NCBI GenBank assembly: GCA_021799555.1
Contig: JAJZAG010000001.1
Span: 9,674 to 46,283, forward strand
DNA: 36,610 bases
Direction: 5' to 3'
Origin: Deltaproteobacteria bacterium
GTDB lineage: Bacteria > Desulfobacterota > Binatia > Binatales > Binataceae
The first letter of the stretch is position 1. Each line of letters begins with the position of its first letter. A program made the position numbers and the translations under genes. Under the pieces are notes generated by a model. It did no database searches. It worked only from the letters and a program-made list of their open reading frames with translations, and was not told where the DNA came from. Shown one piece after another: positions 10,225 to 36,610 of this stretch.

Positions 10225-10332
10225 AGTTCCGCGCAACAAGCGCGCGCCGGGATGGTCGGGAAAACGCGGCGATGCCGACCGCCGTTCATATTCGGGCGGC
10301 CAGCATCGCGGTGCGATTGGTGCTTGGGTGAC

Positions 10333-12225: not shown

Positions 12226-12495
12226 TAGCCTTTTCCCTTTTGGTTCGGCATCCGTAAGTAATGGGCTTGAACCGGGGAAGAAGAGAGCAACAGTCGTACC
12301 TACCTCATTCAAAGATAAATCCAAGCAAATTCAGGCTTTTTTTGTCGCGGGCGGAAGGAGCCGCCATACGGTTTGGTAATCCTTTGACCCATTTCGGAAG
12401 GCCGCCCGATTTCGTTCTGTTGAGCGATCTTCGATAATCCTGTTGGCGGAAGGCGAATAAAGCGCGATAGTCTTCGAAGCTTTGCGTGGCGATCG

Positions 12496-17727: not shown

Positions 17728-17812
17728 CGCGCGGCACTCACCGCGACAAGCAACACGGCAATCGGCGAGAAATTGCGCGGTGAATTCATCACGAACCTTT
17801 TTTCTCGACTGG

Positions 17813-18910: not shown

Positions 18911-19304
18911 TCTTGGTTTCTCCTTCCTGAATGCCGGATCGACAGAATACTATAGATGCGGCTAAGCGCGCATGCCCCATCGCGACCGCTCACGATTATG
19001 CCAGCATAGCCGAATTCGCAAAAGATCAAGAGGCCACCGCGGTGAGAATATCAACCGGATGCGCGCGTGACGTGGCGCGGACCGGCCGGATTGGAATCGA
19101 CCTGTTCTATTGAGCGCGCTGGCTACGCCCAGGTGGAATCGGCATTATGTAAGCGTGGTAGCGCCACGTTGCGATGGACTGACCGGCAGGCGCTAGCCGA
19201 TTTGGCCGGGTTCACCTGGCGGGGGCGGCGGGCGGCTTTGCTTGAAGGCGGCGGCTGATTTATCCGGGGGTTCTTCTTTACGGAGCGCAAGGATTAACGC
19301 AGGC

Positions 19305-21752
19305 ATGGCTGTTCCTCCACTTTCCGATGCAAATCGTGATCTGTTCATCGCGCTGATCGAACATCACATCCGATTCACGCTGGCCAAGCGGCGTATCGAG
19401 CTGACCAAGCATGATTGGTATCGCGCGACCGCGATGGTGGTGCGCGACATGCTGATCGAAAAGATGCTAATGACGAGCCGCCGCTTCGAGCAGCATCGGT
19501 CAAAAAAGCTTTACTATCTGTCGCTGGAGTTTTTGATTGGACGCTCGCTCGAGAACAACCTCTTGAATCTTGGTATCATCGAAATCTGCCGAGAATTTCT
19601 TGCCGAGAGTGGAATCGATTTGCAGGTCCTGTTCGACGAGGAACCTGACGCGGCGCTCGGCAACGGGGGCCTCGGACGGCTGGCCGCATGCTTTCTGGAT
19701 TCGCTCGCGACGATGGACTTGCCCGGATACGCGTACGGGATCAATTACGAATACGGATTGTTTCGGCAGGAGATACGCGGCGGCTATCAGGTCGAGCGCC
19801 CGGACGCATGGCAGCGCGAAACTTCGCCGTGGCTCGTGGCGCGTCCCGAAGAGCTGTGCCGAATTCCGGTTTACGGACGAATCGAGGACCGGTTCGACGG
19901 CACCGGTGAGTACGTTCCGGCGTGGGTCGATCAACGGATCATTGTCGGGGTGCCGTCGGATTTACCGATCGCGGGTTTTGGGGGAAACACCGTCAACTTT
20001 GTCCGGCTCTATTCGGCGCATGCCTCGGACGAGTTCGACATGCAGATCTTCAACGCCGGCGACTACGTTAAAGCCGTCGAGCAGAAAATGCTCTCCGAGA
20101 CGATCTCGAAAGTGCTGTATCCGTCGGACGCGGTCGCGGCTGGACGCGAGCTGCGGCTTTTGCAGGAGTATTTCTTTGTGGCGTGCGCGGTACGCGATAT
20201 CGTGCGTTCGTTTCTCGCCCGCGGCGAGGATCTTATAGATTTCCCGGCACAAGTTGCTATTCAGCTCAATGACACGCATCCTGCACTGACTATTGCCGAG
20301 CTGATGCGGACGTTTATCGACGAATATGACCTGCCTTGGGCGATCGCATGGGAGATCACCCGCAGCGCAGTGGCGTATACGAATCATACACTAATGCCGG
20401 AGGCGCTCGAGCGATGGCCGGTCGAGCTTCTGGGCCGCGTACTTCCGCGTCATCTGCAAATCATCCGAGAGATCAATCGCAGATTTCTCGCGGCGGCTGC
20501 AGAGCGATGGCCAGGCGATTCGGACCGGTTTCGCCGCATCTCGATCTTCCAGGACGATCATGAGCATCAGGTCCGGATGGCGCACCTCGCGATCGTCGGC
20601 AGCCATTCGGTCAACGGCGTGTCCAAGCTGCATACACAACTGGTGAAGACGCGTCTGGTACCCGACTTTTACGAGATGTGGCCTGAGCGATTCAACAACA
20701 AAACCAACGGGGTAACGCAGCGCCGCTGGCTGCTGATGGCGAATCCGGCCCTCGCGGCGCTGCTCGACACGACCATCGGCACAGGCTGGGCAACCGCTCT
20801 TGAAGAGCTTGCCGGCGTGGAGCAATTCGCCGACGACAGCGCGTTTCAACAGTCTTTTATCGCGATCAAGCGTGGGAACAAGGAGCGCCTCGCGCGGATC
20901 GTCAACCGGATCGCGGCGGTGGATTTCGATCCTTCCGCGAGTTTCGACATCCAGGCCAAGCGTATCCACGAGTACAAGCGCCAACTGCTGATGGCGCTCG
21001 GTATCGTGCATCAGTACCTGCGAATTGTCGAGGACGGCGCCGAACCGCCGGCGCCGCGCGCGTACATCCTCGCCGGCAAGGCCGCGCCCGGCTATTGGGC
21101 AGCGAAGATGATCATCAAGCTGATCAACAGCCTTGGCGACGTGATCAACAACGACCCGAAGACTCGCGAGATGATCAAGGTGGCGTTTCTGCCTGACTAC
21201 CGGGTGTCGCTGGCGGAAAAGATCATTCCGGCGGCGGATATATCCGAGCAAATATCAACGGCGGGACGCGAGGCGTCGGGAACCGGGAACATGAAGTTTG
21301 CGATGAACGGCGCACTCACGATTGGAACGCTCGACGGCGCTAATATCGAGATTCGCGATGCGGTTGGCGCGGAAAATATATTTATCTTCGGGCTGACGGC
21401 CGAGCGGATAGAATCGATGACCGCCGCAAATGAGTATCATCCGCGGGACTACTATGAGTCCGATCCACGCCTTAAACGAGTATTGGACGAACTTGCCTCC
21501 GATCGATTCTGCGCCGGTGAACCAGGTCTGTTCCGATGGGTGCGCGACGCACTGCTCGAGCGCGACGAGTATTTTCTCATGGCGGACTTCGCGTCATATA
21601 TCGATACTCAGTCCGAGATATCGGCCGAATACCAGGATTCGCAAGCCTGGACTCGCAAGGCGATCCTTAATCTGGCGCGAATCGGGCGCTTTTCGAGCGA
21701 TCGCGCCGTCTCCGAATACGCGCGCGAAATCTGGAAGCTGAAGCAGGCGTAA
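19305..21752 (+). CDS. glgP: Glycogen/starch/alpha-glucan phosphorylase (classical GlgP/MalP type)
   Basis: YLSLEFLIGR, LGNGGLGRLAACFLDS, QLNDTHP, KTNGVTQRRW, KRIHEYKRQ and PLP motif EASGTGNMK. ATG 19305 preferred. Confidence 0.95.
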   Translation: MAVPPLSDANRDLFIALIEHHIRFTLAKRRIELTKHDWYRATAMVVRDMLIEKMLMTSRRFEQHRSKKLYYLSLEFLIGRSLENNLLNLGIIEICREFLAESGIDLQVLFDEEPDAALGNGGLGRLAACFLDSLATMDLPGYAYGINYEYGLFRQEIRGGYQVERPDAWQRETSPWLVARPEELCRIPVYGRIEDRFDGTGEYVPAWVDQRIIVGVPSDLPIAGFGGNTVNFVRLYSAHASDEFDMQIFNAGDYVKAVEQKMLSETISKVLYPSDAVAAGRELRLLQEYFFVACAVRDIVRSFLARGEDLIDFPAQVAIQLNDTHPALTIAELMRTFIDEYDLPWAIAWEITRSAVAYTNHTLMPEALERWPVELLGRVLPRHLQIIREINRRFLAAAAERWPGDSDRFRRISIFQDDHEHQVRMAHLAIVGSHSVNGVSKLHTQLVKTRLVPDFYEMWPERFNNKTNGVTQRRWLLMANPALAALLDTTIGTGWATALEELAGVEQFADDSAFQQSFIAIKRGNKERLARIVNRIAAVDFDPSASFDIQAKRIHEYKRQLLMALGIVHQYLRIVEDGAEPPAPRAYILAGKAAPGYWAAKMIIKLINSLGDVINNDPKTREMIKVAFLPDYRVSLAEKIIPAADISEQISTAGREASGTGNMKFAMNGALTIGTLDGANIEIRDAVGAENIFIFGLTAERIESMTAANEYHPRDYYESDPRLKRVLDELASDRFCAGEPGLFRWVRDALLERDEYFLMADFASYIDTQSEISAEYQDSQAWTRKAILNLARIGRFSSDRAVSEYAREIWKLKQA

Positions 21753-21804: not shown

Positions 21805-22986
21805 CTATAATCCACGGGCTTCGGGAAAAATTCGCAGGAAGTTTTCCGCGTAAAAGCGGTTGCGTATCTCGTCCGGTCGGCTGCCCAGCGCGGCCTCGAA
21901 GCGCGCGATCGGATTGCGTCCCCCCTCGGTATGCGGATAGTCGCTCGAAAAGAGGTAAAGTTCCGGGTTTGATTGATCGATCAGGGATCCGACGTCTTCG
22001 AAGACAAACGGCGTGAACGCGATCTGCTCGGTCAACTGTTCCGATGGCTTGCGCTTAAACTTGGCGAGATTGAGGTCGGTTTTACGCCAATGCTGCACCA
22101 CCCAGTCCAGCCGGACCAGCAGGGACGGCACCCATCCGGCACCGAGTTCCACGCTGGCTCCGCGCAGATTTGGAAAGCGTTCGAATACCCCGTCAACCAG
22201 CATCATTGTCAGAAACGTTTCCGGCCCCTGATGCAGGACCGCGACATCCTTGGTGCGCAGATTCTCGCCGCCACCCATCCAGTCTTTGACCGGCGGCCGT
22301 CCGTTGTTCGTCCACGCCTTGCCTAGCTGAAGCGGCGAGCCGCCGACGTGCAGAACAAACGGGACGCCTGCTGTCGCTAGACGCTCCCAGAACGGATCTA
22401 GCGCGACATGGCCGGGTGAGCGATCGCCGCAGGCCCGATGTGGAACCCACACGGCTTTGAGATCGCTTCTGATCGCGAAATCGAGCTCTTCAAGCGCGAG
22501 CGCGGGATCATCGAGCGGCACGATCGCGACACCCAGCAGCCGCTTGTCGCGCGCGCAAAACTCAGCCATATGGCGGTTGTGCGCGCGCGTCGCACCGTAG
22601 CGGAGCCGCAGAGAAGTCTTTGAGCTCGGCGAAAACGACATCGCCACGCTGTGGGTAGCGAACACGAGCTGGCTGCGAAAGCCGAGCATATCGAGCGCAA
22701 CCGATCGCTCCAGACTATCGAATGCGCCCAGTGCCTGAATTTCCTTGACGCGCTCGATCAGATGATCGCCAAGGCCGATCAGATCGGCGACATGCTGTTC
22801 GCTATGGCGGCCGCCGCGCGCCATGATTTCGGCGACTTCCGCGTCGGTCACTATCGATGCGCTATAGCTCACCGCCGGAATTTCGTCGCGTAGATCCGGG
22901 TCGGCGTAGCGTTTGAGAAAATCAGGCAGCTCCATAATATGGCTGTCGGCATCATAAATCGGCCGAATATCGGGTGCGTATGCCAT
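21805..22986 (-). CDS. Amidohydrolase family protein (Amidohydro_2)
   Basis: DADSHIME, LHVG, VELGAGWVP, FSSDYPHTEG. GGAGG SD precedes ATG 22986. Confidence 0.85.
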   Translation of the reverse strand: MAYAPDIRPIYDADSHIMELPDFLKRYADPDLRDEIPAVSYSASIVTDAEVAEIMARGGRHSEQHVADLIGLGDHLIERVKEIQALGAFDSLERSVALDMLGFRSQLVFATHSVAMSFSPSSKTSLRLRYGATRAHNRHMAEFCARDKRLLGVAIVPLDDPALALEELDFAIRSDLKAVWVPHRACGDRSPGHVALDPFWERLATAGVPFVLHVGGSPLQLGKAWTNNGRPPVKDWMGGGENLRTKDVAVLHQGPETFLTMMLVDGVFERFPNLRGASVELGAGWVPSLLVRLDWVVQHWRKTDLNLAKFKRKPSEQLTEQIAFTPFVFEDVGSLIDQSNPELYLFSSDYPHTEGGRNPIARFEAALGSRPDEIRNRFYAENFLRIFPEARGL

Positions 22987-23101
22987 CGCGGCGCCTCCGG
23001 AATTTATGGCGGTCAGAACCCGCGACGGATTCAATCACGAATGCGGCCCGGCTTCCAAACAAATGCGCGGAGTTAGTCGGTTCGATCGGACCCGCGGATG
23101 C

Positions 23102-23959
23102 TCATCCACGCTTCATGGCCTCGAAGCCGCCGATCAGGTCCAGAATTTCGGTGGTGATCGCCTCTTGCCGCATCCTGCGCAGGTTTCTGTTCAGTTCCTT
23201 CGTCTTGCCAGAGATATTTTCGTGGGCGGCTTCCATAGTGCGGAAACGGGCCGCGTTTTCGCTCGCAAACGAGTCCATCGCGGCAGCTTCGAGGATTGCG
23301 AACATGTATTCGGAGGCAATTTCGTCAAGCAGACGACGCGGTTTCACGTTCACAAGCGGCGGGATGGCGGCCGACGCTTGTTTGCCGGGGGGAACTTCGA
23401 GTGGAAAGAGCTGGAGCGTAACTAGACTCGGACGCTGGCCGGCCGACTCGCGAATGAAGATCGCTTCGGCGTTCGTGAGTGCGCCGGAGAGCAAGCGGCT
23501 ATAGAGCGCAGCGGCAAGCCGATGCGCAGCCGCCGTCACCGCGCCGCTGTGGGTGGCCATCGGAAGCGTAAGTGTCGAGGCGATCCCGCGTTCGGCGGCA
23601 CGCTGCGCGCCTCGAGTTCCGACGAAAATCAGTTCGATCGCGGGATCCTTTCGGACCGCTTGGGTGGCTGCTTCGATAAGTGGCTGATTGAAAGCGCCGC
23701 AAAACCCGTGTTCCGAACAGAAAACGACCAGACCACGGTGCACAATCGCGCCCGCCGCCGCACGATCGCCGTCGGCCGGTACGAGAGTAGCCGCTTCCAT
23801 GAGAGCATTGCGGATAATATCGGCGTAGTTGCGAATCGCGTCGATCGAGCGCTGACTCTGTTGCATCTGCACGGCGGCGATCGCGCGCAGCGCCGCGACT
23901 ATTTCAAGCAACTCGGTTAGAGAAGCGATTTGGGTCGCGATTTCCTGAGTCCGTGCCAT
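23102..23959 (-). CDS. atpG: N-type ATPase gamma subunit
   Basis: SEHGFCGAFN, SENAARFRTMEAA, RQEAITTEILDL. Last gene of atpDCQRBEFAG. Confidence 0.93.
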   Translation of the reverse strand: MARTQEIATQIASLTELLEIVAALRAIAAVQMQQSQRSIDAIRNYADIIRNALMEAATLVPADGDRAAAGAIVHRGLVVFCSEHGFCGAFNQPLIEAATQAVRKDPAIELIFVGTRGAQRAAERGIASTLTLPMATHSGAVTAAAHRLAAALYSRLLSGALTNAEAIFIRESAGQRPSLVTLQLFPLEVPPGKQASAAIPPLVNVKPRRLLDEIASEYMFAILEAAAMDSFASENAARFRTMEAAHENISGKTKELNRNLRRMRQEAITTEILDLIGGFEAMKRG

Positions 23960-23971
23960 CGGATCCGGCTG

Positions 23972-25537
23972 CTAGCTTGAGGCGCTTGCGGCGGAAGACG
24001 CCGGAGTCGCGCCGACGCGGGCGACCAGTTCCGTCATCAGGTTGCGCAGGGCCGCGCGTGTGCCGTCATCGAGATCGCCGGTCGATTTGATTGCCTCGAT
24101 CGGGGCTGCGCCCTCTTCGTCGAGCCATTTGGCGAGCGAGTTGCGCAGCTTGGTGACCTGATCGAGCGGCAATGGATCGAGTAGCCCCTCGTTAAGCGCC
24201 AGCAACAGGGCGACTTGATGCGGCATCGTAAGCCCTGAGCATCGCGGTTGCGTGAGCACGGTGCGGATTCGGCGGCCATGCTCGATTATGCGGCGGGTGC
24301 GTTCGTCAATCATCCCACCGAAGCGCGTGAAAATTTCGAGTTCGAGAAACTGTGCGTACTCGAGCCGCAGATTTTCCGAAAGCTTGCGCATCGCCGGCGC
24401 CTGGGTCTTACCGCCCACGCGCGAGACGCTTTTGCCTACATTGATCGCAGGCTTCTGTCCCTCTTGGAAAAGGCGCGGCTCGAGAACGATCTGACCGTCA
24501 GTGATCGAGATCAGGTTGGTGGGGATGTACGCTGAAATATTGCCCTCCTCGGTTGTGGCGATCGGCAGAGCAGTTAGCGATCCGCCGCCGCGCTCGTGGC
24601 TCAACTTGGCCGCGCGTTCGAGCAGGCGCGAATGAATGTAGAAGATGTCGCCGGGGTACGCTTCGCGCCCAGGCGGATTTCGCAGCAGCAGCGAAAGCTG
24701 GCGGTAGATCACAGCGTGGCTGGTCAGGTCGTCGACTACCAGCAGCGCATCGCCGCCGCGCTCGCTGAAATATTCCGCCATCGAGCACGCCGCGTAGGGA
24801 GCGAGCCATTGCAATCCCGGAGGGTCATCGGAAGCGGCGATGACGAAGATGCATCGCTCCATCGCGCCGAATTGTTTAACCGTTTCGATTACCTGCGCGA
24901 CCGACGACGTCTTCTGGCCGACGGCGCAATAGACGCAGATAACTCCGGAATCGCGCTGATTTACGATCGTATCGACGGCGATCGCGGTTTTACCGGTTTC
25001 GCGATCGCCGATTATCAACTCGCGCTGCCCGCGGCCGAGCGCGAGCATCGAATCGATCGCGACGATACCGGTCTCGAGCGCCTTGGCTACGAGTTCACGC
25101 TCGATAATACCCGGCGCCGGTCTTTCGACCGGATAGAATTCGGCCGCAGCCAAATCCGGCCCGCCATCGAGCGGGATTGCGAGCGGGTTGAGCACCCGAC
25201 CGAGCAGTTTTTCGCCGACCGGCACGCGCGCGACCGAGCCGGTTCCGCGCACGCGGCTTCCCGCCGCGATTGCGTCGGCCGGACCGAGCATCGCGCACCC
25301 GATCAGGTTGGGGTCAAGCGCCAGCGCCATTCCAGCGACGCTCTTCGAGCCGTCGTTTGGTTCAAACATCAGCAATTCGCCAAGCCGGGTCGCGGGTAGA
25401 CCGGAGACCGTGGCGACGTCGTCGCCGATACTCTCGACGCGGCCTAAGAGATCCAACGAGGGTTTGGGCGTCAGGCTATCGAGGCGCCGCGCCGCCTCGC
25501 CGAGTTGGCGCGCGACATTCTCAGCCAGCGTGCTCAT
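23972..25537 (-). CDS. atpA: N-type ATPase alpha subunit
   Basis: GRGQRELIIGDRETGKT, PPGREAYPGDIFYIHSRLLERA, YIPTNLISITDGQI, SVSRVGG. Confidence 0.96.
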   Translation of the reverse strand: MSTLAENVARQLGEAARRLDSLTPKPSLDLLGRVESIGDDVATVSGLPATRLGELLMFEPNDGSKSVAGMALALDPNLIGCAMLGPADAIAAGSRVRGTGSVARVPVGEKLLGRVLNPLAIPLDGGPDLAAAEFYPVERPAPGIIERELVAKALETGIVAIDSMLALGRGQRELIIGDRETGKTAIAVDTIVNQRDSGVICVYCAVGQKTSSVAQVIETVKQFGAMERCIFVIAASDDPPGLQWLAPYAACSMAEYFSERGGDALLVVDDLTSHAVIYRQLSLLLRNPPGREAYPGDIFYIHSRLLERAAKLSHERGGGSLTALPIATTEEGNISAYIPTNLISITDGQIVLEPRLFQEGQKPAINVGKSVSRVGGKTQAPAMRKLSENLRLEYAQFLELEIFTRFGGMIDERTRRIIEHGRRIRTVLTQPRCSGLTMPHQVALLLALNEGLLDPLPLDQVTKLRNSLAKWLDEEGAAPIEAIKSTGDLDDGTRAALRNLMTELVARVGATPASSAASASS

Positions 25538-26279
25538 TTTGAGCCAACTCCCGCTCCGCCTGATTCAGCGCGTCACGCCAACTGAAGCGGAGGATCGCTC
25601 GGGGAAACTTTAGCTCCGCGCCGGCAATAAGTTCCGCGTCCGATGAGAACTCGATTCGCGATCGGGCGCCGAACCGCTCGCAAAGGGCCGCGCGCCATTT
25701 CTCAGCGGCCTCGGAATCCAGCGGAGCCGCGGTTGTAACGAGCAACTGGTGGTCGTCGTGCGCGGCGTCGCCCAGCAGCTCGGCGCGCTCCACGGCGGAA
25801 AGCTGGTCCAGATGGTCAAGCACGCGTGCCAGAAATAGATCCTCCATACACGGCGCGGGAAACTGCTGCAAAAGGCGCTGCGCAATGCGGACGGCAATCT
25901 GTATCGACTGTGCAAACACTTGTTGCGAGGCGAGATTGCGCTCTTCTTCGAGGCGCTTGAGCGCCGCGGCTTTGAGTTTTTCCGCGTCCGCGCGCGCAGC
26001 CTCCACCATCGCGGATCGTTCGTCGGCAAGCTGGGCGCGCGCGCGATCTAAGATCGCCTGACGCTCGGATTCAATTTGCAACTTTTGCGCCTCGAAATCC
26101 TTGCGCGCTTGCTCCGCGGCGGTTCGCGCAGCAGCCGCCTGCGCCTGTGCACTCGCGATTTCTTCCTTGCGGCGCGCGATAATCGCGCCCACAGGCCTAA
26201 AGAGGAATCGCTTCAGCAGCCAGACCAGAACCAGGAAGTTGATCGCCTGAAGCGCAAACGTTGACCAACTAAAGGACAT
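25521..26279 (-). CDS. atpF: N-type ATPase b subunit (extended, delta-like C terminus)
   Basis: W.TFALQAINFLVLVWLLKRFLFRP, coiled coil, then VTTAAPL...LIAGAEL...FSW. 252 aa. No separate atpH in the operon. Confidence 0.92.
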   Translation of the reverse strand: MSFSWSTFALQAINFLVLVWLLKRFLFRPVGAIIARRKEEIASAQAQAAAARTAAEQARKDFEAQKLQIESERQAILDRARAQLADERSAMVEAARADAEKLKAAALKRLEEERNLASQQVFAQSIQIAVRIAQRLLQQFPAPCMEDLFLARVLDHLDQLSAVERAELLGDAAHDDHQLLVTTAAPLDSEAAEKWRAALCERFGARSRIEFSSDAELIAGAELKFPRAILRFSWRDALNQAERELAQNEHAG

Positions 26280-26524
26280 CAGCGAACCGCGTAAGGATTT
26301 GCGAACAGCAGCAAGAGAGCCACCACCAAGCAGTAGATCGCCATCGTCTCGATCATTGCCAGGCCGACGAACAGGGTGCGCGACAGCGCACCCGCCGATT
26401 CCGGCTGCCGTGCAATGCCGTCCATCGCGGCGACGATTGCGCGGCCTTCGGCGAGCGCCGGACTAATCGAGCCGACCATCACCGCCAGCGCGGCGCCGAT
26501 TATGCTTACCATCTGCACAGTCAT
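26279..26524 (-). CDS. atpE: N-type ATPase c subunit (81 aa)
   Basis: ATG 26524 with GGAGG SD. PALAEGRA..ARQPE..GLAMIETMAIY..LLFANP. Confidence 0.95.
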   Translation of the reverse strand: MTVQMVSIIGAALAVMVGSISPALAEGRAIVAAMDGIARQPESAGALSRTLFVGLAMIETMAIYCLVVALLLLFANPYAVR

Positions 26525-26540
26525 ACCAAAACCTCCATTG

Positions 26541-27209
26541 CTACCTTTCGATTGCGCCGACTGCACCGCCGATATAGACGGCGGCGAGCACCGTGAATAT
26601 GTATGCCTGCACAAGGCCGACCAGGATTTCGAACGCCATAAACGGAATCGGAACCAGCAGCCCAGCCAGAGCTATTACTATCGCAACTACCAATTCGTCA
26701 CTCATTATGTTCCCGAACAATCGCATCATTAGCGAAAATGACCGCGTGAACTCCGACAGAATATTCAGCGGGAGCAACATAGGGTTCGGCTTCAGGTACC
26801 CTTTCAGATATTCGCCGAGCCCGTGCTGGCGAACCCCAAACACGTGCACGGAGAAAAATACTATCGTCGCCAGCGCCGCAGGAGTCTCGATCGACGCCGT
26901 GGGCGCGCGCACTCCTGGCAACAATTCCGACAGGTTCGCAACCACCAGGAAGATAAACAGAGATCCCAGAAGAGGAAGGAATGGCGCAGGATCGCGATTG
27001 ACTATAGCGCGGACCTGATCTTCGATCGCTCCGACTAGAGTCTCGACGATCGCCTGCAATCCGTCGGGAATTAGTTGCAAGCGCCGCGTCGCATAGCGGC
27101 TGGCGATAACCAAAGCAACAATCAGCGCCCACGTGGTAACGACGGTTCCGGTAATCACAACCGGTCCGATTTGGAATACCGCAACCGCTTCCAGGGGGGA
27201 CCGACTCAT
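26541..27209 (-). CDS. atpB: N-type ATPase a subunit
   Basis: Starts MSRSPLE with an ATGA overlap and AAGGAG SD. Essential Arg in SLMMRLFGN, plus VQAYIFTVL. Confidence 0.95.
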   Translation of the reverse strand: MSRSPLEAVAVFQIGPVVITGTVVTTWALIVALVIASRYATRRLQLIPDGLQAIVETLVGAIEDQVRAIVNRDPAPFLPLLGSLFIFLVVANLSELLPGVRAPTASIETPAALATIVFFSVHVFGVRQHGLGEYLKGYLKPNPMLLPLNILSEFTRSFSLMMRLFGNIMSDELVVAIVIALAGLLVPIPFMAFEILVGLVQAYIFTVLAAVYIGGAVGAIER

Positions 27210-27490
27210 CGCGCCGCTCCTTCCGTGAGTGCCCGGCCACGGACGGTGTAAACCTTTGCCAACTGGAAACCGATGAGGACTGAGAGCAAAGCGCCGGGGC
27301 CGAACTTTGCGGCAGCGGTGAAAACAACGGCCGCGCCCACCCAGCGCAGCGCATGGATGAAGATGGCAAGTCTTCCGCCGGAGAGGCCGCAGTAGAGCCG
27401 GACATTCCACTCGAGCGCGCCCAGAAACGCGAACGCAAATGCCGCCCCGAGAGCCAGGAACCCGAGCAGATTAAAAACGGCGATATTCAT
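27206..27490 (-). CDS. atpR: N-ATPase-specific subunit AtpR
   Basis: 94 aa, three TM segments with membrane-adjacent Arg residues (WNVRLY, HALRW). Position between atpQ and atpB, with ATGA overlaps on both sides. Confidence 0.8.
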   Translation of the reverse strand: MNIAVFNLLGFLALGAAFAFAFLGALEWNVRLYCGLSGGRLAIFIHALRWVGAAVVFTAAAKFGPGALLSVLIGFQLAKVYTVRGRALTEGAAR

Positions 27491-27795
27491 TGATCCGTGT
27501 GCATCCTTTGCCAGACCATATAAAATCCCGCGGAGACACCCAGGAAAACCAGCGCCGCGCTCCAGAAGACGCCACTGTGAAAATATACGTCGAGCCATCG
27601 CCCAACGAACACGCCTAATAACGGAGGCCCGACGATAGTCCATCCGAATCTGCCCATCATCGCGAGCGCGCGTCCGATCGGCCATTCGCCAGTTCGCTCC
27701 CAATAGTCGCGCCTGGCTCTTGCTCTACTTACCGCATCCGCAAGTTTGCGCTCCTCATCATCGGAAGCTTTGTTTTTTTGCTTCGGCTCTTTCAT
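27487..27795 (-). CDS. atpQ: N-ATPase AtpQ (ATPase gene 1 / AtpZ-like)
   Basis: LAMMGRFGWTIVGPPLLGVFVGRWLD with two TM helices. Canonical position after atpC. Confidence 0.85.
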   Translation of the reverse strand: MKEPKQKNKASDDEERKLADAVSRARARRDYWERTGEWPIGRALAMMGRFGWTIVGPPLLGVFVGRWLDVYFHSGVFWSAALVFLGVSAGFYMVWQRMHTDQ

Positions 27796-28226
27796 GACTT
27801 GTGCCCGAGCAGGCTCGCCGGCCGCTCGCTTGGCCGCAGATAACGATAGATTTTTTGCACGGCAGCCTCCTGGAGGCCGAACGCACCCAGCCTGGCGGCC
27901 TGTTCCGACTCCGCGTTCCTGGCCATTTGCTTGAGCACAACTTCGCGAAGATGCTGCAGGTCATTACCTACCACGGCCTCGCGGGTCGCGACCTGAACCG
28001 ACTTGCCCCCGCGTACGCGAAGCACACCGCCGCGAACTGCGGCGCAGTGCTCCGATCCCGCATCATCGCGCCAGTTCAGCACGCTGATCGTAAGCGCGGT
28101 CAAAAAATCAGCGTGCCCGGGCAAAACACCAAAAGATCCCGTCGAGTCCTCAGCGCGGACGTGGTGGACATTGTCTATATTAACCGCGATCTCGGTTGGA
28201 GTTGTGATGATCAGTCTCATTGCCAA
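27792..28226 (-). CDS. atpC: N-type ATPase epsilon subunit
   Basis: L.ITTP, GSFGVLPGHADFLTAL, AVRGGVL. Alternative start ATG 28220. Confidence 0.92.
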   Translation of the reverse strand: MAMRLIITTPTEIAVNIDNVHHVRAEDSTGSFGVLPGHADFLTALTISVLNWRDDAGSEHCAAVRGGVLRVRGGKSVQVATREAVVGNDLQHLREVVLKQMARNAESEQAARLGAFGLQEAAVQKIYRYLRPSERPASLLGHKS

Positions 28227-28229
28227 CAG

Positions 28230-29717
<1,488 letters not shown>

Positions 29718-32222
29718 TTAGTGCTGCCAAAGGATTTGTGCCGCCTCCAAAGGAATCGCGGCATCAGGGTGACGCGGTATAACACGCGGCGTGAATTCAT
29801 CGGTGCGGCGATTAGATGGCACCTGTGCCGCATAGGTCCAGCCTTTGACCGCTCCGACAAGCTCGTCGCCGCGGGTCATCTTGATTCGTTCCGGTGTGTC
29901 AGAGCCGAGCGGTTCAGCATAGAGCTCGACCTCGATCGCATTCGGATCAATGTCATCAAGGTAGAGCTGAACATGGATTAGATGATGTTCTGCGGAACTC
30001 TCGACATGAACGTTGCCAAAGTAGATCGCGGGCCAATGGCGGAAAAGCTGCTCGCGCCACGCGAGCAGCTGTTTGCCCAGGGCCGCATTGTTATCGGCGC
30101 GCTTACGGTAGGCACGTGCGGCGGGAACATAATATTGATCGGTATATTCGCGCACCGCACGATTGGCCGAAAATAAAGGGGTCAGATGTGCCATGCTCTG
30201 GCGAATTTTGGCTACCCACGCCGTCGGAATGCCGGAATCATCCCGGGTGTAGAAAGAGGGAATTACCTCTTTTTCAAGTAGCGCATAGAGTTGATTGGCT
30301 TCCGTGGCGTCCCAAACAGAGTCGTCATCGTGAAATTTTCCGTCTCCTAAAGACCATCCGACCTCCGGCGCGTAGGCTTCCGCCCACCATCCGTCCAGTT
30401 CAGAAAGATTGAGACCTCCGTTCACCAGCACCTTCATGCCACTGGTGCCACACGCTTCCCACGGACGCCGAGGCGTATTGATCCAGAGATCGACTCCATA
30501 CACCATGCGCCCGGCCAGCAGGAGATCGTAGTCACTGAGGAAGACGACGTGCTTGCGGACCTCCGGGCGCATCGCAAATAGCACCCAGTCGCGAATCATC
30601 TTTTGACCCGGAAGATCCTGCGGATGAGCCTTCCCCGCAACCAAAAGTTGCACGGGGCGTTGACCTTGGGTCAGAATTCGCACGAGCCGCTCCGGGTCGT
30701 GCAAAAGCAAATTCGGCCTCTTGTAAGAGGTAAATCGGCGGGCGAATCCGATGGTTAGCGTGTTGGGATCGAAAATCGATTCCGCGAGGGTATGATCGCC
30801 GCCAAAGTCTCGGGCCATCCTTGCACGCACATAGTTGACGAGGTCCGCCCGGTTGGACGCGCGTAACTGCCAGATCTGAGCATCGGTAACCGAGCAGATT
30901 TGCTCGCCGACTCTTTCCATCGCTCCGCGCCATCGATTCGGGCCGCAGGTTGTGGTCCATAGCTGGTCCGCGTGAGGCGAATCCCAGCTTGGTGTATGGA
31001 CACCGTTGGTGACGTGCCCTACCGGAACCTCGGCGCGAGGCCATCGTGGAAATAGCGGTTGGAATATTTCCCGGCTAACGATTCCATGCAGGCGGCTGAC
31101 GCCGTTGATTGCAGCGCTTCCATGAAGCGCAAGGTAGGCCATATTGAAGGGTTCATCGGAATTGTCGGGGTTGGCGCGGCCCAGAGCCATCAGTTCGCGC
31201 ATTGTAATGCCGAGGCGCTCTTCCGCGAATGCTTTCAGGTATTGCTCCATCAACGCCGGAGTAAACCGATCGAAGCCAGCGGAGACGGGGGTATGGGTAG
31301 TGAACAGGTTGCCAGCCCGCGTCACCGCCAATGCTGCCTCGAATGCCAAGCCGGTTTGCTCCATGAAACCGTGCGCACGTTCGAGCACGGCAAAGGCGGC
31401 GTGACCCTCGTTGAGATGACAAACTTCGGGGTTCAGTCCCAATCGCGCCAGCATGCGCCAACCGCCGATACCCAACGCGAGCTCCTGCTGAAGCCGCAAT
31501 TCTGAGCCGCCGCCGTAAAGTTCGCTGGTAATGCCGCGATAAGCGGGCGGATTGGCGGGGTCATTGGTATCGAGCAGGTATAGGGTTACGCTGCCGACCC
31601 GCGCCTGCCAGGTGCGCAGCCAAAGCCGCTGCCCCGGCAATCGAATTTCCAGGCGAAACCATTCGCCGTCTTTGTCGCGTACAGGCGAAATGGGTAACTG
31701 ACTCGGATCATTGTAGGGAAAGAGTGCAGTCTGATTTCCCGCTGCGTCGATAAATTGGCGGAAATAGCCCTGCTGGTAGAGCAGCCCAACGCCAACCACG
31801 GGTACCCCGAGATCATTGGCAGCTTTCAGTAAATCGCCCGCCACGTTGCCCAAACCGCCCGAATAAATCGGCAACGCTTCGCTGAGTCCGAATTCCATAC
31901 TGAAGTACGCAATTGCTGTGAGTTGCGCATCGGGATGTGCCTGTTTGAACCATGGCACCTGGCGGCGGTTCCTACGTTCAACCATTGCCTGAATCTGTCT
32001 GCGGTAGCCGGGATCGGCAGCCATTTTCGCGAGCTTTGTCCGTGAGACGGTTTGCAGAACCACCCATGGGTTATGCGTTAATTCCCACAGCTCAGGTTCG
32101 AGCCGGCTCCATAACTCGTCGGCGCCGTGGTCCCAGCAATTACGAAGATCGAGGGCTAATTCAGCCAATTCCTCGACGCCTTCAATATCGGGAGGCTCCA
32201 ATCCATAACCAGTTCTTACCAT
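29718..32222 (-). CDS. glgP: Alpha-glucan phosphorylase, second subfamily (DUF3417 N-terminal type)
   Basis: AYFSMEFGL, YSGGLGNVAGD, HLNEGH, FTTHTPV, FARRFTSYKR, AGKAHP and PLP motif EACGTSGMK. Confidence 0.93.
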   Translation of the reverse strand: MVRTGYGLEPPDIEGVEELAELALDLRNCWDHGADELWSRLEPELWELTHNPWVVLQTVSRTKLAKMAADPGYRRQIQAMVERRNRRQVPWFKQAHPDAQLTAIAYFSMEFGLSEALPIYSGGLGNVAGDLLKAANDLGVPVVGVGLLYQQGYFRQFIDAAGNQTALFPYNDPSQLPISPVRDKDGEWFRLEIRLPGQRLWLRTWQARVGSVTLYLLDTNDPANPPAYRGITSELYGGGSELRLQQELALGIGGWRMLARLGLNPEVCHLNEGHAAFAVLERAHGFMEQTGLAFEAALAVTRAGNLFTTHTPVSAGFDRFTPALMEQYLKAFAEERLGITMRELMALGRANPDNSDEPFNMAYLALHGSAAINGVSRLHGIVSREIFQPLFPRWPRAEVPVGHVTNGVHTPSWDSPHADQLWTTTCGPNRWRGAMERVGEQICSVTDAQIWQLRASNRADLVNYVRARMARDFGGDHTLAESIFDPNTLTIGFARRFTSYKRPNLLLHDPERLVRILTQGQRPVQLLVAGKAHPQDLPGQKMIRDWVLFAMRPEVRKHVVFLSDYDLLLAGRMVYGVDLWINTPRRPWEACGTSGMKVLVNGGLNLSELDGWWAEAYAPEVGWSLGDGKFHDDDSVWDATEANQLYALLEKEVIPSFYTRDDSGIPTAWVAKIRQSMAHLTPLFSANRAVREYTDQYYVPAARAYRKRADNNAALGKQLLAWREQLFRHWPAIYFGNVHVESSAEHHLIHVQLYLDDIDPNAIEVELYAEPLGSDTPERIKMTRGDELVGAVKGWTYAAQVPSNRRTDEFTPRVIPRHPDAAIPLEAAQILWQH

Positions 32223-32236
32223 AACTCGCTCGTTAG

Positions 32237-33418
32237 CTAATCGTGCGGAACACCAGTATATAGTGTTGAGTATACGTGCCGCGCGATCATGAGATCTTCA
32301 TTAGTGGGAATAACACGAACGATACAGCAGCCGTCTGTGGCGCTGATCGTATCGGCATTTTGCTGATTTTTCCGAGCATCAAGTACGACTCCGAGATGCG
32401 CGAGGCCATTGCAGATTTCCGCTCGCACGAGAGCGGCTTTTTCCCCGATACCGCCGGTAAACACCAGCATGTCGAGCCCGCCGAGAGCGGCCGCGAGGGC
32501 GCCAACCTGCTTACGCGCCTGATAACAAAACATCTCGATCGCCTGAGCCGCGCATGAATCCATATGACTGCGGTCAAGAAGCGTCTTCATGTCCGCAGTG
32601 ACCCCGGATACGCCAAACAATCCCGATTCGTCGTTGACAAGCCGCTCCAACGCGCGCGCGGCAAGATGCTTGTGATTGAGCAGGTAAAGAATGACGCCCG
32701 GGTCCAGATCGCCGCTCCTGGTTCCCATCATAAAGCCGCCGGTTGGCGAAAAACCCATCGTTGTATCGAGCGAACGCCCGTCTCTCACCGCCACCATGCT
32801 GGCGCCGCTACCGAGATGAGCGATAATCAGGCGCCGGGGCGGATTATCACCTAGCGTTTCCATGATGTACTCATAGGAGATGCCGTGAAACCCGTACCGC
32901 CGAATCCCTTCGTCAAACAGTCCACGCGGCAGCGCGAATCGCTCGGCCACTTCGGGCATCGCACGATGAAATGCCGTATCGAAGCACGCAACCTGCGGCA
33001 GACCGGGCGCGAGCGCGGCGATCGCTTCGATACCGGCGAGCTCATCGGGCAAATGCAGCGGTGCGAACGGGATGAGGCTTCGTAAGTTCGCGATCAGAGC
33101 GTCGCTGATCCGCTCAGGAGCTTCATGGTCAGGTCCGCCGTGGACGATACGGTGTCCGGCAGCGTCAGGTGACGGGAGGTCCAGGTGGGCCATCGCGGAA
33201 AACGCCGCCTCGAGTGCCGCGTGCGGCTCGAATATGCTGTCCCCTTCCCTCTCGAACTTTCTGCCGCTGGTGGTAACCCATAGGCGCCCTCGCAGCCCTT
33301 CGCCGCGTTCCACGCCCCCCTGTGCCATCATCGCTCCGATGCTGTTGTCGAATGCGTATAGGGCAAACTTGCGGGTGGAGGAACCGCTATTGAGACAGAA
33401 TATTATTCGCGCAGGCAT
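32237..33418 (-). CDS. ackA: Acetate/propionate kinase
   Basis: NSGSST.K, GHRIVHGG, FDTAFH, RYGFHG, HLGSGAS, MGTRSGDLDP, FTGGIGE, TNE. Confidence 0.93.
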   Translation of the reverse strand: MPARIIFCLNSGSSTRKFALYAFDNSIGAMMAQGGVERGEGLRGRLWVTTSGRKFEREGDSIFEPHAALEAAFSAMAHLDLPSPDAAGHRIVHGGPDHEAPERISDALIANLRSLIPFAPLHLPDELAGIEAIAALAPGLPQVACFDTAFHRAMPEVAERFALPRGLFDEGIRRYGFHGISYEYIMETLGDNPPRRLIIAHLGSGASMVAVRDGRSLDTTMGFSPTGGFMMGTRSGDLDPGVILYLLNHKHLAARALERLVNDESGLFGVSGVTADMKTLLDRSHMDSCAAQAIEMFCYQARKQVGALAAALGGLDMLVFTGGIGEKAALVRAEICNGLAHLGVVLDARKNQQNADTISATDGCCIVRVIPTNEDLMIARHVYSTLYTGVPHD

Positions 33419-33451
33419 GACTCAGTCTGTGTCAGTTGCGGGGTTCCATTC

Positions 33452-35851
33452 TCAATACTGCCATGTCCAGTTGGTGACTTCGGGATTGTCGATTCCGTGC
33501 TCGTATGCGTACTGAAGGTGTTCGTAGATTTGATCGGTCAACCATTTCTTGACATGCGCACCGACCGAGCGCAGGCGCGGCACGCGGTCGATTACATCAA
33601 TCACAAGATTGAAGCGATCTACCTGGTTGCTAATAGCCAGTTGCAGCGGTGTATTGATGCTGCCGAACTCCTTGTAGCCGCGCACGTGAAAATTGACGTG
33701 GTTGGTGCGCCGGTAGGCAAGCTTGTGAATCAACCATGGATAGCCGTGAAAATTAAATATGACGGGTTTGTCGATCGTGAACAGGCTGTCGAAGTCGCGA
33801 TCGCTGAGACCATGCGGATGCTCGGACGACGGCTGCAGCTTGAACAAGTCGATCACGTTAATAAAGCGAATCTTCAAGTCGGGAAAACGCTCGCGAAGAA
33901 TCGCGGTCGCTGCCAGCGCCTCGATTGTCACCACGTCTCCCGCGCACGCGATTACCACGTCTGGCTCCGCGTCTTGATCGGTACACGCCCATTCCCAAAG
34001 GCCAAGTCCCTGGGCGCAGTGCCGCTCCGCGGATTCGATATCCAGGAACTGTAGGTGCGGCATCTTGTCGGCGACGATCACGTTGACGTAGTTCGTGCTG
34101 CGCAGACAATGATCGGTAACGCTCAATAGACAATTAGCATCAGGCGGTAGATAGATCCGTGTCACCAAGGCGCTCTTGTTCGTCACGAGATCGATGAAAC
34201 CGGGGTCTTGATGGGTGAAGCCGTTATGATCCTGGCGCCAGACCGTCGAACTAATCAGTATGTTGAGAGAGGAAATCGCGGCGCGCCAAGCGACTTCGGA
34301 ACGGCACTTCTCGAGCCACTTGGCGTGCTGATTGAACATCGAATCGATCACGTGAGCGAACGCCTCGTAGGTCGAGAAGACTGCGTGCCTCCCGGTCAGC
34401 AGATATCCTTCCATCCAACCCTCAAGGGTGTGTTCGCTGAGCATCTCCATAACCCGTCCGTCGGGCGATAGCTCGCCGCCATCGTTGTCTTCGGGTTTGC
34501 GATCGGCGAGCCACGTTTTCTTGGTGGCTTCGTAGATCGCCTGGAGGCGGTTAGAAGCGGTTTCGTCGGGACCGAAGACGCGGAAGCTTGTCATGTTCTC
34601 GCGCATCACGTCGCGCAGAAAAGTTCCCATCACATAGGTGTTTTCCGCTTCGACGCGGCCCGGCTGATCGACCTTGACCGCATACTGGCGGAAATCAGGC
34701 ATGCGCAACGGCTTGCGCAAAAGTCCACCGTTGGCGTGTGGATTTGCGCTCATGCGCCGGTTCCCGGCGGGCGCGAGCTCGCGAAGGCTCGCGACAAGCT
34801 TGCCATTACCGTCGAACAGCTCCTGCGGGCGGTAACTGCGCATCCAGTCTTCCAGGATCTTGAGATGATCGGGATTGGTAGCCACATCGGCGATTGGAAT
34901 TTGATGAGCGCGCCAAAAGCCCTCGATTCGATGCCCGTCCAGCTCCTTTGGCGCGGTCCAGCCTTTTGGCGTCCGCAGTATGATCATCGGCCATCGCGGA
35001 CGGCTTGCGACGCCGCTCGAGCGCGCCTGCACCTGGATCGCGCGAATCTCGGCGAGACAGTGGTCGAGCGTGGCAGCCATCTTCTGATGCATCGCGAGCG
35101 GCTCGGCACCTTCGACTATGTAGGGGATATATCCATAGCCGATGAAGAGGCTTTTGAGTTCCTCTTCCGAGACGCGGGAAAGCAAAGTCGGATTCGCAAT
35201 CTTGTAGCCGTTGAGGTGAAGAATCGGCAGCACGGCTCCGTCACGAATCGGATTGAGGAACTTGTTGGAGTGCCACGACGTCGCCAGCGGCCCGGTTTCT
35301 GCCTCGCCGTCGCCCACTACCGGAACTACGATCAGGTCTGGATTGTCATAAGCAGCGCCATAGGCGTGCGAGATGCTGTAGCCGAGTTCACCGCCCTCGT
35401 TGATTGAGCCCGGGGTCTCGGGCGTGCAGTGGCTGCCGATTCCACCGGGAAAGGAGAACATCTTGAAAAGGCGCTTGAGACCTTCTTCGTCCTGGCTGCG
35501 GTCCGGATAGATTTCCGAATAGGTTCCCTCGAGATAAGCGTTGGCAAGAACCGCGGGCGCTCCATGACCAGGGCCCGAGACGTAGATCATGTTAAGGTCG
35601 TGAAGCCGGATCAGGCGGTTTAAGTGCACCCAGACGAAGCTCTGGCCGGGGTCCGATCCCCAATGGCCGAGCAAACGGCGCTTGATGTGCTCCGGCTGGA
35701 GCGGTGCTCTGAGCAGGGGATTGTCGCGTAAGTAGAGCATTCCAAGCGACAGGTAATTGCACGCGTGCCAATACGCATCGATATTGCGTAGCTCTTCGGC
35801 GCTGAGCGGTGCGGTCGTATCGGCGGGATCGGTTTTTGAGGTTCTGATCAT
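33452..35851 (-). CDS. xfp: Phosphoketolase (xylulose-5-P / fructose-6-P, XFP family)
   Basis: GHWG, GPGHG, EGGELGY, TPP motif GDGEAETG...[29 protein letters not shown] 35851 follows the SD-like AAGGTGGTGA (alternative GTG 35863). Confidence 0.96.
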
Positions 35852-35978
35852 TTTCTTCACCACCTTCGCCGGTGCTCATGGCAAATGAGCCTCCGCTCCT
35901 TAAAGAATTCTCGTGAATCGCGACCGACGCAACCACTGAGAAGAGCCGCAGAAAGCGCGCTCCGGCGATGTTTGAGGG

Positions 35979-35994
35979 AGCAATCGCTATGCCG
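35979..35994 (-). promoter_or_regulatory. Putative sigma54 -24/-12 promoter for the xfp operon
   Basis: Minus strand CGGCATAGCGATTGCT has exact GG-N10-GC spacing with GGCA and TTGCT, about 130 bp upstream of xfp. Confidence 0.65.
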
Positions 35995-36051
35995 CTAGCC
36001 AAGACCAAAAACCATAGCGCGCGTAGCGTGGTTGCGGGTTTGGCAATCCAA

Positions 36052-36095
36052 CCAAACGACACAGAGCGAATTGACCGGTGTGCCCAAAAGACACA
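36052..36095. promoter_or_regulatory. Candidate activator-binding direct repeat CCAAA(C/A)GACACA x2
   Basis: Copies at 36052-36063 and 36084-36095 (32-bp period). The second lies within the near-palindrome TGTGCC-N5-GACACA (36079-36095). Confidence 0.4.
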
Positions 36096-36146
36096 TCGCG
36101 GCGCACTCGGCGGTCGGGGCTGAACGAAAAATATCGGACTACAGGC

Positions 36147-36162
36147 TGGCTCGATTTTGGCT
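36147..36162 (+). promoter_or_regulatory. Putative sigma54 promoter for the CBS gene
   Basis: TGGCTCGATTTTGGCT has GG-N10-GC spacing and two mismatches to TGGCACG-N4-TTGCW. It ends 44 bp before the ATG. Confidence 0.45.
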
Positions 36163-36206
36163 CTGAATAGGGCTGAAAGTTTTCCAAGGCATCGGAGGAT
36201 GGCGCG

Positions 36207-36610
36207 ATGAAGGTCGAAAATATGATGAATCGCGACGTTAAGAGCTGTCATCCCTATGATCGGCTGAACCGTGGCGCTCAAGTTATGTGGGAAAACACCT
36301 GTGGCGCCGTGCCGATTGTTGACGAGCAATCCCGGCCAATTGGCTTCCTGACCGACCGCGATATCTGTATGGCCGCCTATACGCAAGGCAAGCCTCTGCA
36401 GGAAATGACGGTTGACAGTGCCATGGCGCACAGGATTTTCGCTTGCCGCGCCGACGATGATCTCTCGGCCGCAATGAGGATGATGGCCGAGACCGGGATG
36501 CGCAGGCTCCCCGTAACCGGCCCAGAGGGCAAGCTCGTAGGGATACTATCGCTCGACGATCTCGCGTGCGAAGCAGGAAGAAGCCTGCGCGGAGGTGTGA
36601 ACGCTGAGTT
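36207..36610 (+). CDS. CBS-domain pair protein (3' truncated; absent from ORF track)
   Basis: GGAGG SD, then MKVENMMNRDVKSC..MWENTCGAVPIVD..IGFLTDRDI..MRRLPV..LVGILSLDDL. Open to the window end. Confidence 0.9.
   Translation, partial: MKVENMMNRDVKSCHPYDRLNRGAQVMWENTCGAVPIVDEQSRPIGFLTDRDICMAAYTQGKPLQEMTVDSAMAHRIFACRADDDLSAAMRMMAETGMRRLPVTGPEGKLVGILSLDDLACEAGRSLRGGVNAE

Follow-up and report, generated by a model that had tools for sequence, protein, structure and literature searches.

N-ATPases have been described as second copies beside a typical F- or A-type ATPase, with the gene order atpDCQRBEFAG, an AtpQ protein and a long b subunit (PMC2881411; this and the other papers are cited for individual passages). 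Their role is unsettled: Na+ export, proton pumping under acid stress and standby ATP synthesis have all been proposed. In Burkholderia pseudomallei, pta (BPSS1955), ackA (BPSS1956) and pfk (BPSS1957) lie, by locus-tag numbering, beside the N-type cluster BPSS1945-1953, and both sets of genes rise together in a gvmR mutant (PMC5964159). Under hypoxia the ATPase cluster on chromosome II of this organism was induced and the one on chromosome I repressed (PMC4187911), and the two-carboxylate c17 ring of its N-type enzyme was H+-specific and the enzyme was proposed by its authors to be a pump (PMC5376962). N-type subunits of Nitrospira marina were more abundant at low O2 (PMC8115632), and in a cyanobacterium a phosphoketolase-acetate kinase (XPK-ACK) route was reported to supply survival ATP under dark anaerobic stress (PMC10365998). 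Here we analyse a stretch of 36,610 nt from a bacterium of the family Binataceae (contig JAJZAG010000001.1; hereafter the window), in which xfp, ackA and an alpha-glucan phosphorylase gene directly precede a complete set of N-ATPase genes. We read this locus as a probable sigma-54-dependent operon in which fermentation ATP made without an electron acceptor would drive an accessory N-type ATPase as an ion pump, a reading that we hold tentatively and with confidence a little short of even.

In comparison with the N-ATPase operon as described (PMC2881411), the window is alike in gene order, in encoding a second copy of the ATPase, in having no delta gene and a long delta-like b subunit, and in AtpQ, an AtpR-like candidate and two Glu residues in the c subunit; it differs in that three upstream carbon genes stand behind one sigma-54-type box, and in the c-subunit motif ETMxxY in place of ESTxxY. 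Both B. pseudomallei (BPSS1944-1957) and the window have an accessory N-type ATPase beside an acetate kinase, and on the B. pseudomallei side a glycolytic gene adjoins, the genes are co-regulated, the ATPase cluster is hypoxia-induced and a proton pump was proposed (PMC5964159, PMC4187911, PMC5376962). However, acetyl-phosphate is made there via Pta (pta-ackA-pfk, adhA), with neither phosphoketolase nor glucan phosphorylase, and none of the relevant passages of these three papers suggests fermentation ATP as what powers the pump. A preliminary description of this DNA had noted that N-ATPases occur near acetate kinase and hypoxia-induced genes in Burkholderia, which the published work bears out (PMC5964159, PMC4187911). 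The lxa locus of B. cenocepacia, a low-oxygen island, holds a related cassette: it includes universal stress protein (Usp) genes, alpha-crystallin, ackA, pta and phaC, and no ATPase gene is named within it in the passage concerned (PMC3721108).

The N-ATPase itself, the XFP-AckA survival route and the presence of AckA genes beside the Burkholderia N-ATPase were known already. In fermenters such as bifidobacteria with the bifid shunt, it is standard physiology that F1Fo spends fermentation ATP on proton export. The cyanobacterial pathway has in common with the window that phosphoketolase and acetate kinase yield ATP without respiration (PMC10365998). In neither cyanobacteria nor bifidobacteria, however, are the genes known to be fused with those of a second ATPase set aside for this use, and the cell has just one F-type enzyme. 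What appears to be new is the operon-level fusion of an N-ATPase with glucan phosphorolysis and phosphoketolase, and the view of different storage-polymer cassettes as recurrent neighbours of N-ATPases. In the searched literature, which did not cover subscription journals and supplements, no text joined phosphoketolase with N-ATPase or N-type ATPase; N-ATPase and acetate kinase were co-mentioned, but were unrelated in the texts examined.

Twelve co-directional genes occupy the minus strand of the window between positions 23102 and 35993, in the order xfp, ackA, phosphorylase and atpDCQRBEFAG according to Pfam and NCBIfam (Table 1). The gaps are 33 nt between xfp and ackA, 14 nt between ackA and the phosphorylase gene and 36 nt between the latter and atpD, and within the atp block neighbours either overlap or are separated by no more than 16 nt. 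These identities, the shared orientation and the gaps had all been given in the preliminary description, and the family matches and coordinates confirmed them. Its remark that no internal terminator is visible also held: terminator-like sites in the window were not more frequent than in shuffled sequence (14 versus 13.6) and none lay at a junction, and predicted folding at the three carbon-gene/atpD junctions was not stronger than that of shuffles (z 0.47 to 0.71). A scan of the window for sigma-70 promoters gave nothing above shuffles. The junctions are bridged by contigs of other public runs, namely X7 record 16 (spanning 30420-36610), X1 record 1 (22000-30447) and X7 record 15 (29221-30447); since these bridge every carbon-gene/atpD junction, the gene order is not an artefact of one assembly. 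Near-identical DNA is present in runs labelled as sediment and mine drainage metagenomes; the runs listed for positions 26100-36000 included none of RNA. The longest xfp frame begins with GTG at 35863. As to atpB, an ORF at 26698-27438 was considered and rejected, having no family match, and the atpB frame is the one listed in Table 1.

The ATPase predicted from the operon has most of the features by which N-ATPases are recognized, in line with what had been noted from gene order. All nine genes of the atpD-C-Q-R-B-E-F-A-G order are present, AtpQ (PF09527) is among them, and the atp block contains no separate delta ORF, the C-terminal part of AtpF being delta-like instead (residues 176-246 match the delta model of NCBIfam). 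AtpR (PF12966) of described N-ATPases is small and carries two Arg residues in the core of the membrane (PMC2881411); the candidate here had no NCBIfam match. Among the matches listed, beta subunits from loci with the N-type arrangement share 64-71% identity with that of the window; for beta subunits from canonical operons the identity does not exceed 61%. The alternate-F1F0 model of NCBIfam ranked best for b and gamma, second for beta, alpha, c and epsilon, and fourth for a. The metagenome-assembled genome (MAG) to which the window belongs (3.66 Mb in 427 contigs, 92.5% complete) also encodes canonical F-type pieces on other contigs, namely alpha on C210, beta on C408 and a plus c on C217, and the canonical beta is 53-54% identical to the N-type one. 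The N-type enzyme is therefore an accessory one, as had been expected of it. The genome tallies for canonical ATPases, N-type beta and xfp include five genomes (G010, G107, G379, G411 and G419) whose loci and sequences were not used.

Alignment to solved c-rings showed Glu in both helices of the c subunit and ETMxxY where Na+ rings have ESTxxY, i.e., Met at the equivalent of Thr67, and the full ESTxxY set of Na+ ligands is absent. Because several N-ATPases lack the same Thr (Dibrova et al., PMC2881411), this exchange bears on the coupling ion more than on membership of the N-ATPases.

The carbon genes were identified from their profiles, the three XFP profiles being covered nearly end to end, and both xfp and ackA are the sole copies found in the MAG. 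Phosphorylase yields glucose-1-phosphate without ATP cost, XFP yields acetyl-phosphate and AckA yields ATP; the scheme known as non-oxidative glycolysis is redox-neutral if pentose-phosphate rearrangements recycle the remainder. PTA_PTB was found neither in the window, where the preliminary description had likewise seen no pta, nor in the 92.5%-complete MAG or five congeners (86-97% complete), so XFP is the only acetyl-phosphate source identified. Glucose-6-phosphate isomerase (PGI), three genes of the phosphoglucomutase (PGM) family and transaldolase are encoded on other contigs of the MAG. A route from glucose-1-phosphate to the substrate of XFP hence exists, and the operon is not the self-contained unit that it had been called. 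The AckA of the window is 67% identical to that of the congener G007 and 61% identical to the xfp-linked copy of G395, but only 43-50% identical to the solitary ackA products of four congeners, in which the gene lies far from xfp. Because AckA is closer to the xfp-linked copies than to those of its congeners, xfp-ackA is, on these identities, a distinct lineage travelling as a pair. Three congeners (G003, G009 and G006; loci L123, L125 and L127) have two xfp paralogues that are 60% and 74% identical to the gene of the window, and the 74% paralogue stands immediately behind a gene for a universal stress protein, with no ackA adjoining it.

A sigma-54-type box had been noticed at the head of the operon; it lies at 35979-35993 and reads GGCATAGCGATTGCT. 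In the window alone this box is not significant (one match versus 0.30 expected, with at least one match in 26 of 100 shuffles). However, the -24/-12 block is conserved at the head of the N-ATPase locus in 5/5 loci of the genus; the gene that comes after it is xfp in the window and in G007, and in G003, G004 and G009 it is that for the phosphorylase. A similar leader follows the block in the window, G007 and G003. In the window it spans 35852-35978 (about 130 nt), and blocks such as ATGGTTTTG are common to G003, where they stand before the phosphorylase gene, and to G007 and the window, where they stand before xfp; this stretch between box and first gene may be a regulatory leader. The simplest reading of the comparison is that the ancestor of the genus already had a phosphorylase-N-ATPase unit driven by sigma-54, with the xfp-ackA pair either inserted between leader and phosphorylase gene in the branch of the window and G007 or lost elsewhere. 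The MAG encodes rpoN and at least 15 sigma-54 activators, and activator genes lie within the N-ATPase islands of G003 and G004; no activator gene was linked to the operon in the MAG, whose contig ends 0.6 kb upstream. The strict box pattern had 13 matches over all 37 family loci compared (1.37 Mb, both strands). As a regulon marker the motif was rejected, with 22 matches in the MAG versus about 14 expected from base composition and none at atpD in most family loci.

The observed gene identities, packing, conserved promoter block and accessory ATPase, together with the failure to find pta, led us to the following scheme, for which a single transcript, the inducing signal and the direction and ion of the ATPase are what we infer. 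Phosphorylase would release glucose-1-phosphate from stored alpha-glucan with no ATP spent, and PGM and PGI, encoded elsewhere, would convert it to fructose-6-phosphate. XFP would split the sugar phosphate to give acetyl-phosphate, from which AckA would form acetate and ATP, an electron acceptor being unneeded. The N-ATPase, working in the hydrolysis direction, would then export H+ (less likely Na+), and this pumping would hold membrane potential and cytoplasmic pH under respiration failure or acid load, to which acetate formation would itself contribute. The pump reading is supported by the close packing with no terminator at the junctions, by the same -24/-12 block at the head of both forms of the unit with rpoN and activators present, by the phosphorylase gene that precedes atpD in 5/5 loci of the genus and the recurrence of xfp-ackA-phosphorylase as a module, and by the different AckA cassettes that adjoin N-ATPases elsewhere and the stress-type neighbours in family loci. 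Further points in its favour are the failure to find PTA_PTB together with single copies of xfp and ackA, and published work on the XPK-ACK route (PMC10365998), on the H+-coupled c17 ring (PMC5376962) and on N-ATPases as enzymes argued to make no ATP (PMC2881411). The sediment and mine drainage labels suit either stress, respiration arrest or acid.

A class sample of 401 genomes was searched for the N-type beta subunit at a threshold of E <=1e-180, at which more divergent N-types are missed. N-type beta was found in 34/94 other genomes of the family versus 0/306 genomes of 19 other families. With the window, 37 family loci could be compared (36 others), four of which have less than 2.1 kb of upstream sequence and are unable to show linkage. 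The phosphorylase gene stands directly before atpD in 5/37 of these loci, a set that comprises every locus of the genus; in G018 nothing but a CBS gene intervenes (phosphorylase-CBS-atpD), and in G373 the phosphorylase gene is about 6 kb from the N-ATPase. Between the window and G007 the order is kept, with proteins 67-89% identical. Only three family genomes, those of the window, G007 and G395, have xfp within 25 kb of the N-ATPase. Outside the family, we surveyed at least 11 N-type loci from named genomes, a sample with no member of the window's family, and three loci of Sphingomonadales; among the matches listed, neither xfp nor phosphorylase lay within 10 kb in any of the 11 (0/11 each). 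In metagenome contigs retrieved with the AckA of the window as query, xfp was just upstream of ackA in 43 of the 64 with enough upstream sequence, and a DUF3417 phosphorylase gene just downstream of it in 5/60.

Several of our results weigh against the pump reading. The full xfp-ackA-phosphorylase-atp order occurs in only 2/37 family loci (the window and G007), both in one genus, and xfp is present in 86/101 family genomes, mostly far from the N-ATPase. The full linkage was found in 0/14 N-type loci outside the family (11 among the matches listed plus three), just 3/14 of which have ackA within 10 kb, and among metagenome contigs centred on ackA, 0/20 of those with 4.5 kb or more of downstream sequence had atp genes. 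The promoter motif is lacking at atpD in most family N-ATPase loci and is common genome-wide (22 matches in the MAG). The alternate-F1F0 models were under their cut-off for 6/7 subunits, only epsilon passing, and the c subunit, which lacks one ESTxxY residue and yet keeps both Glu, leaves the ion ambiguous. Finally, an enzyme with a high ion/ATP ratio could equally make ATP at low membrane potential (preprint 10.64898/2026.10.01.756066). The linkage in other genomes that had been anticipated thus holds for G007 with the same order and was not seen in the remainder of the family, in the loci outside it or in the metagenome contigs; by these counts we rejected a general xfp-ackA-phosphorylase-N-ATPase linkage. 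The full arrangement is a rare one-genus fusion of two recurring shorter modules, phosphorylase-N-ATPase and xfp-ackA-phosphorylase.

Single loci of the survey showed further neighbours of these modules. In the metagenome contig L174 (1568-4879) a shortened DUF3417 phosphorylase frame of 535 aa follows ackA, and the next frame joins the N-terminal domain of a P-type cation-ATPase to a DDE transposase, possibly what an insertion sequence has left of an ion pump gene next to the module. In another contig, L194 (2761-17581), xfp, ackA and phosphorylase are followed by an SRAP peptidase gene, a caa3-type oxidase set (COX2, COX1, COX3, CtaG) and a cytochrome b/c fusion. In an uncultured alphaproteobacterium (L006:8153-9814), the gene immediately upstream of the N-type atpD encodes a P-type ATPase.

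The main rival to the pump reading is a shared energy-limitation regulon in which XFP/AckA and the N-type enzyme, as standby ATP synthase at low membrane potential, are expressed together with no ATP flow between them. N-ATPases are argued to have many c subunits and to suit low membrane potentials whether they work as ATPases or as synthases; a cyanobacterial N-ATPase is stated to have shown both synthesis and hydrolysis coupled to Na+, and one of Methanosarcina synthesis (preprint 10.64898/2026.10.01.756066). The rise of the N-type subunits of Nitrospira marina at low O2 (PMC8115632) and the cytochrome c and haem-copper oxidase genes that adjoin the N-ATPase in family loci are also in its favour. 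Nevertheless, nothing was identified here that would build the needed gradient once respiration stops, Dibrova et al. argue that N-ATPases make no ATP (PMC2881411), and AckA cassettes beside N-ATPases in three lineages better fit a consumer of fermentation ATP. We consider this rival unlikely.

Accidental adjacency, i.e., a mobile or translocated xfp-ackA pair that came to lie upstream of a phosphorylase-N-ATPase unit with no selected function and perhaps separate expression, would account for the confinement of the full order to two family loci of one genus. It would also agree with the distinct lineage of the window ackA (67% identical to G007, 43-50% to the four congeners), with the wide occurrence of xfp-ackA without atp genes, and with a GC content of 0.57-0.58 over xfp-ackA-phosphorylase that is slightly below that of much of the atp block (0.58-0.65). 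However, the position of the pair is exact: the conserved promoter and leader flank it on one side and the phosphorylase gene on the other, the gaps measure 33 and 14 nt, and a terminator is lacking. The order is also shared by two species despite a divergence of their proteins to 67-89% identity. Moreover, phosphorylase follows ackA in five unrelated metagenome contigs, and an insertion here recreates that recurring module. An accident is in our view quite unlikely. Very unlikely, finally, is salt tolerance through Na+ extrusion, the role first put forward for this ATPase family, with the carbon genes merely under the same stress promoter: both helices of the c subunit contain Glu, the Thr and Tyr of the Na+ motif are present as well, the helix-1 Glu could complete the Na+ shell at the missing ligand, as was suggested for such cases (Dibrova et al., PMC2881411), and the otsA/otsB genes for trehalose, a compatible solute, are in the same window, but the Thr67 equivalent is Met, a ligand loss of the kind that correlates with lost Na+ specificity (PMC2881411), the two-carboxylate c-ring of B. 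pseudomallei is H+-specific (PMC5376962), and the runs with near-identical DNA bear sediment and mine drainage labels, not marine or saline ones.

Acetate kinase genes adjoin N-ATPases in other company too. In Novosphingobium capsulatum (L015:3996-9248) co-directional genes for phaC, MaoC::PTA, ackA and a FabI-like reductase lie just upstream of atpD, and in Stakelama flava (L011:16473-21378) this cassette, again co-directional, comes shortly after atpG; in Hephaestia mangrovi (L014:2-1482) ackA-FabI is about 8.5 kb upstream of the N-ATPase. The ackA of the cassette is the only acetate kinase gene found in each of these three genomes. Three further N-ATPase loci of Sphingomonadales had no cassette within about 9 kb. 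A cassette common to the whole order was rejected, given these three loci and N-type beta in only 4/201 sampled genomes. Both the Sphingomonadales cassette and the operon of the window combine storage-polymer genes with an acyl-phosphate/AckA step, co-directional beside the atp genes; they differ in that the polymer of the cassette is polyhydroxyalkanoate, not glucan, and in that its route leads via CoA esters and Pta. To judge from gene order, an acyl-phosphate/AckA step beside an N-ATPase arose with different partners in at least three lineages, and it is far from universal.

From three cases, i.e., glucan-XFP-AckA here, polyhydroxyalkanoate-Pta-AckA in Sphingomonadales and Pta-AckA-Pfk in Burkholderia, a more general reading may be drawn, which we regard as doubtful: N-ATPases in general would be maintenance pumps of non-respiring cells, running on ATP gained from storage polymers by substrate-level phosphorylation, and lineages would repeatedly have wired them to their own polymer-to-acyl-phosphate cassette. 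In the present operon the route could be redox-neutral non-oxidative glycolysis, with at most three acetate and three ATP per glucosyl unit and no electron acceptor, and a c-ring of many subunits would maximise the ions exported at a low holding potential. An enzyme encoded directly behind an acceptor-free ATP route predicts both a direction (ATP consumption) and a condition (respiration arrest or acid load) for an ATPase whose role is disputed. The AckA cassettes on another polymer in cultured and non-pathogenic Sphingomonadales make the idea testable in the laboratory, and it may reach beyond the genus. If true, the pump reading would explain how respiratory sediment bacteria hold their membrane potential through anoxic or acidic spells on stored glucan.

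Table 1 Features of the operon and its immediate neighbours (positions in the window; cut-offs are those of the respective models)
Feature	Position	Strand	Evidence and remarks
Sigma-54-type -24/-12 box	35979-35993	-	GGCAT-N5-TTGCT; about 130-140 nt ahead of the xfp start
xfp, phosphoketolase, 799 aa from ATG at 35851	33452-35851	-	XFP_N 588, XFP 279, XFP_C 300 bits
ackA, acetate kinase, 393 aa	32237-33418	-	Acetate_kinase PF00871 341.8 bits, profile 2-392 of 392
Predicted alpha-glucan phosphorylase, 834 aa	29718-32222	-	DUF3417 88.4 bits plus Phosphorylase; TIGR02094 771.3 bits (cut-off 191.7)
atpD, N-type beta subunit	28230-29681	-	Pfam and NCBIfam; Walker A GGAGVGKT present
atpC, epsilon subunit	27792-28226	-	Pfam; alt_F1F0_F1_eps 106.5 bits (cut-off 100.1)
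atpQ	27487-27795	-	PF09527 54.2 bits (cut-off 26.6); TIGR02230
Candidate atpR; hydrophobic product of 94 aa containing Arg	27206-27490	-	PF12966 25.9 bits versus cut-off 26 (borderline)
atpB, a subunit, 222 aa	26541-27209	-	NCBIfam; ATG overlaps the atpR stop
atpE, c subunit	26279-26524	-	Pfam; alignment to solved c-rings; Glu in both helices, ETMxxY
atpF, long b subunit, 252 aa	25521-26279	-	ATP-synt_B residues 7-138, OSCP residues 92-245; alt_F1F0_F0_B best match
atpA, alpha subunit	23972-25537	-	Pfam and NCBIfam
atpG, gamma subunit	23102-23959	-	Pfam; alt_F1F0_F1_gam best match, under its cut-off
Amidohydrolase (PF04909), directly downstream of atpG	21805-23034	-	Pfam
Divergent CBS-domain gene, truncated by contig end	36207-36608	+	Pfam

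At its upstream end the window stops with the contig, inside the CBS gene and 0.6 kb beyond the head of the operon. Downstream of atpG no terminator-like structure was seen in the window, and the amidohydrolase gene that follows possibly belongs to the same transcription unit as the atp genes. An amidohydrolase 83% identical to it is also encoded directly after atpG in G007; none was detected after atpG in the other three congener loci, where about 0.9 kb of downstream sequence is available.

The neighbours of the N-ATPase over the 37 family loci include genes for CBS-domain proteins (10), cytochrome c (9), hemerythrin (8), sigma-54 activators (7), Usp (7) and Hsp20 (4). The N-ATPase islands of the family (L086-L120; for example, oriented positions 650-9700 of L086 and 400-9550 of L088) are variable and of stress type, and their genes also include a Usp-CBS fusion, an AAA_33/APH-type kinase and a DksA-like protein. 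Genes of the island type also occur in the MAG, on other short contigs (C186, C403 and C15) that this assembly leaves separate from the operon; they encode an AAA_33 kinase, a CBS paralogue, Hsp20 and activators that share 61-65% identity with the activator of the islands. In gene content the islands resemble those linked to low oxygen or dormancy, among them the B. cenocepacia lxa locus (PMC3721108).

Beyond the amidohydrolase gene, the window continues with genes for a canonical glycogen phosphorylase, a family 4 glycosyltransferase (GT4), a debranching-type enzyme, otsA and otsB. This part (7666-21752) comprises otsB and otsA for trehalose, a major facilitator superfamily sugar transporter, a Kelch-repeat protein, the GDE_N_bis/MGH1-like debranching-type enzyme, the GT4 enzyme and the glycogen phosphorylase of 836 aa; by its predicted gene content, the operon sits in a storage-carbohydrate neighbourhood. 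At 1798-3132 the window also contains an acetyl-CoA hydrolase/transferase gene, homologues of which lie about 12 kb or less from the N-ATPase in four other family loci, and the product might serve the re-uptake of acetate.

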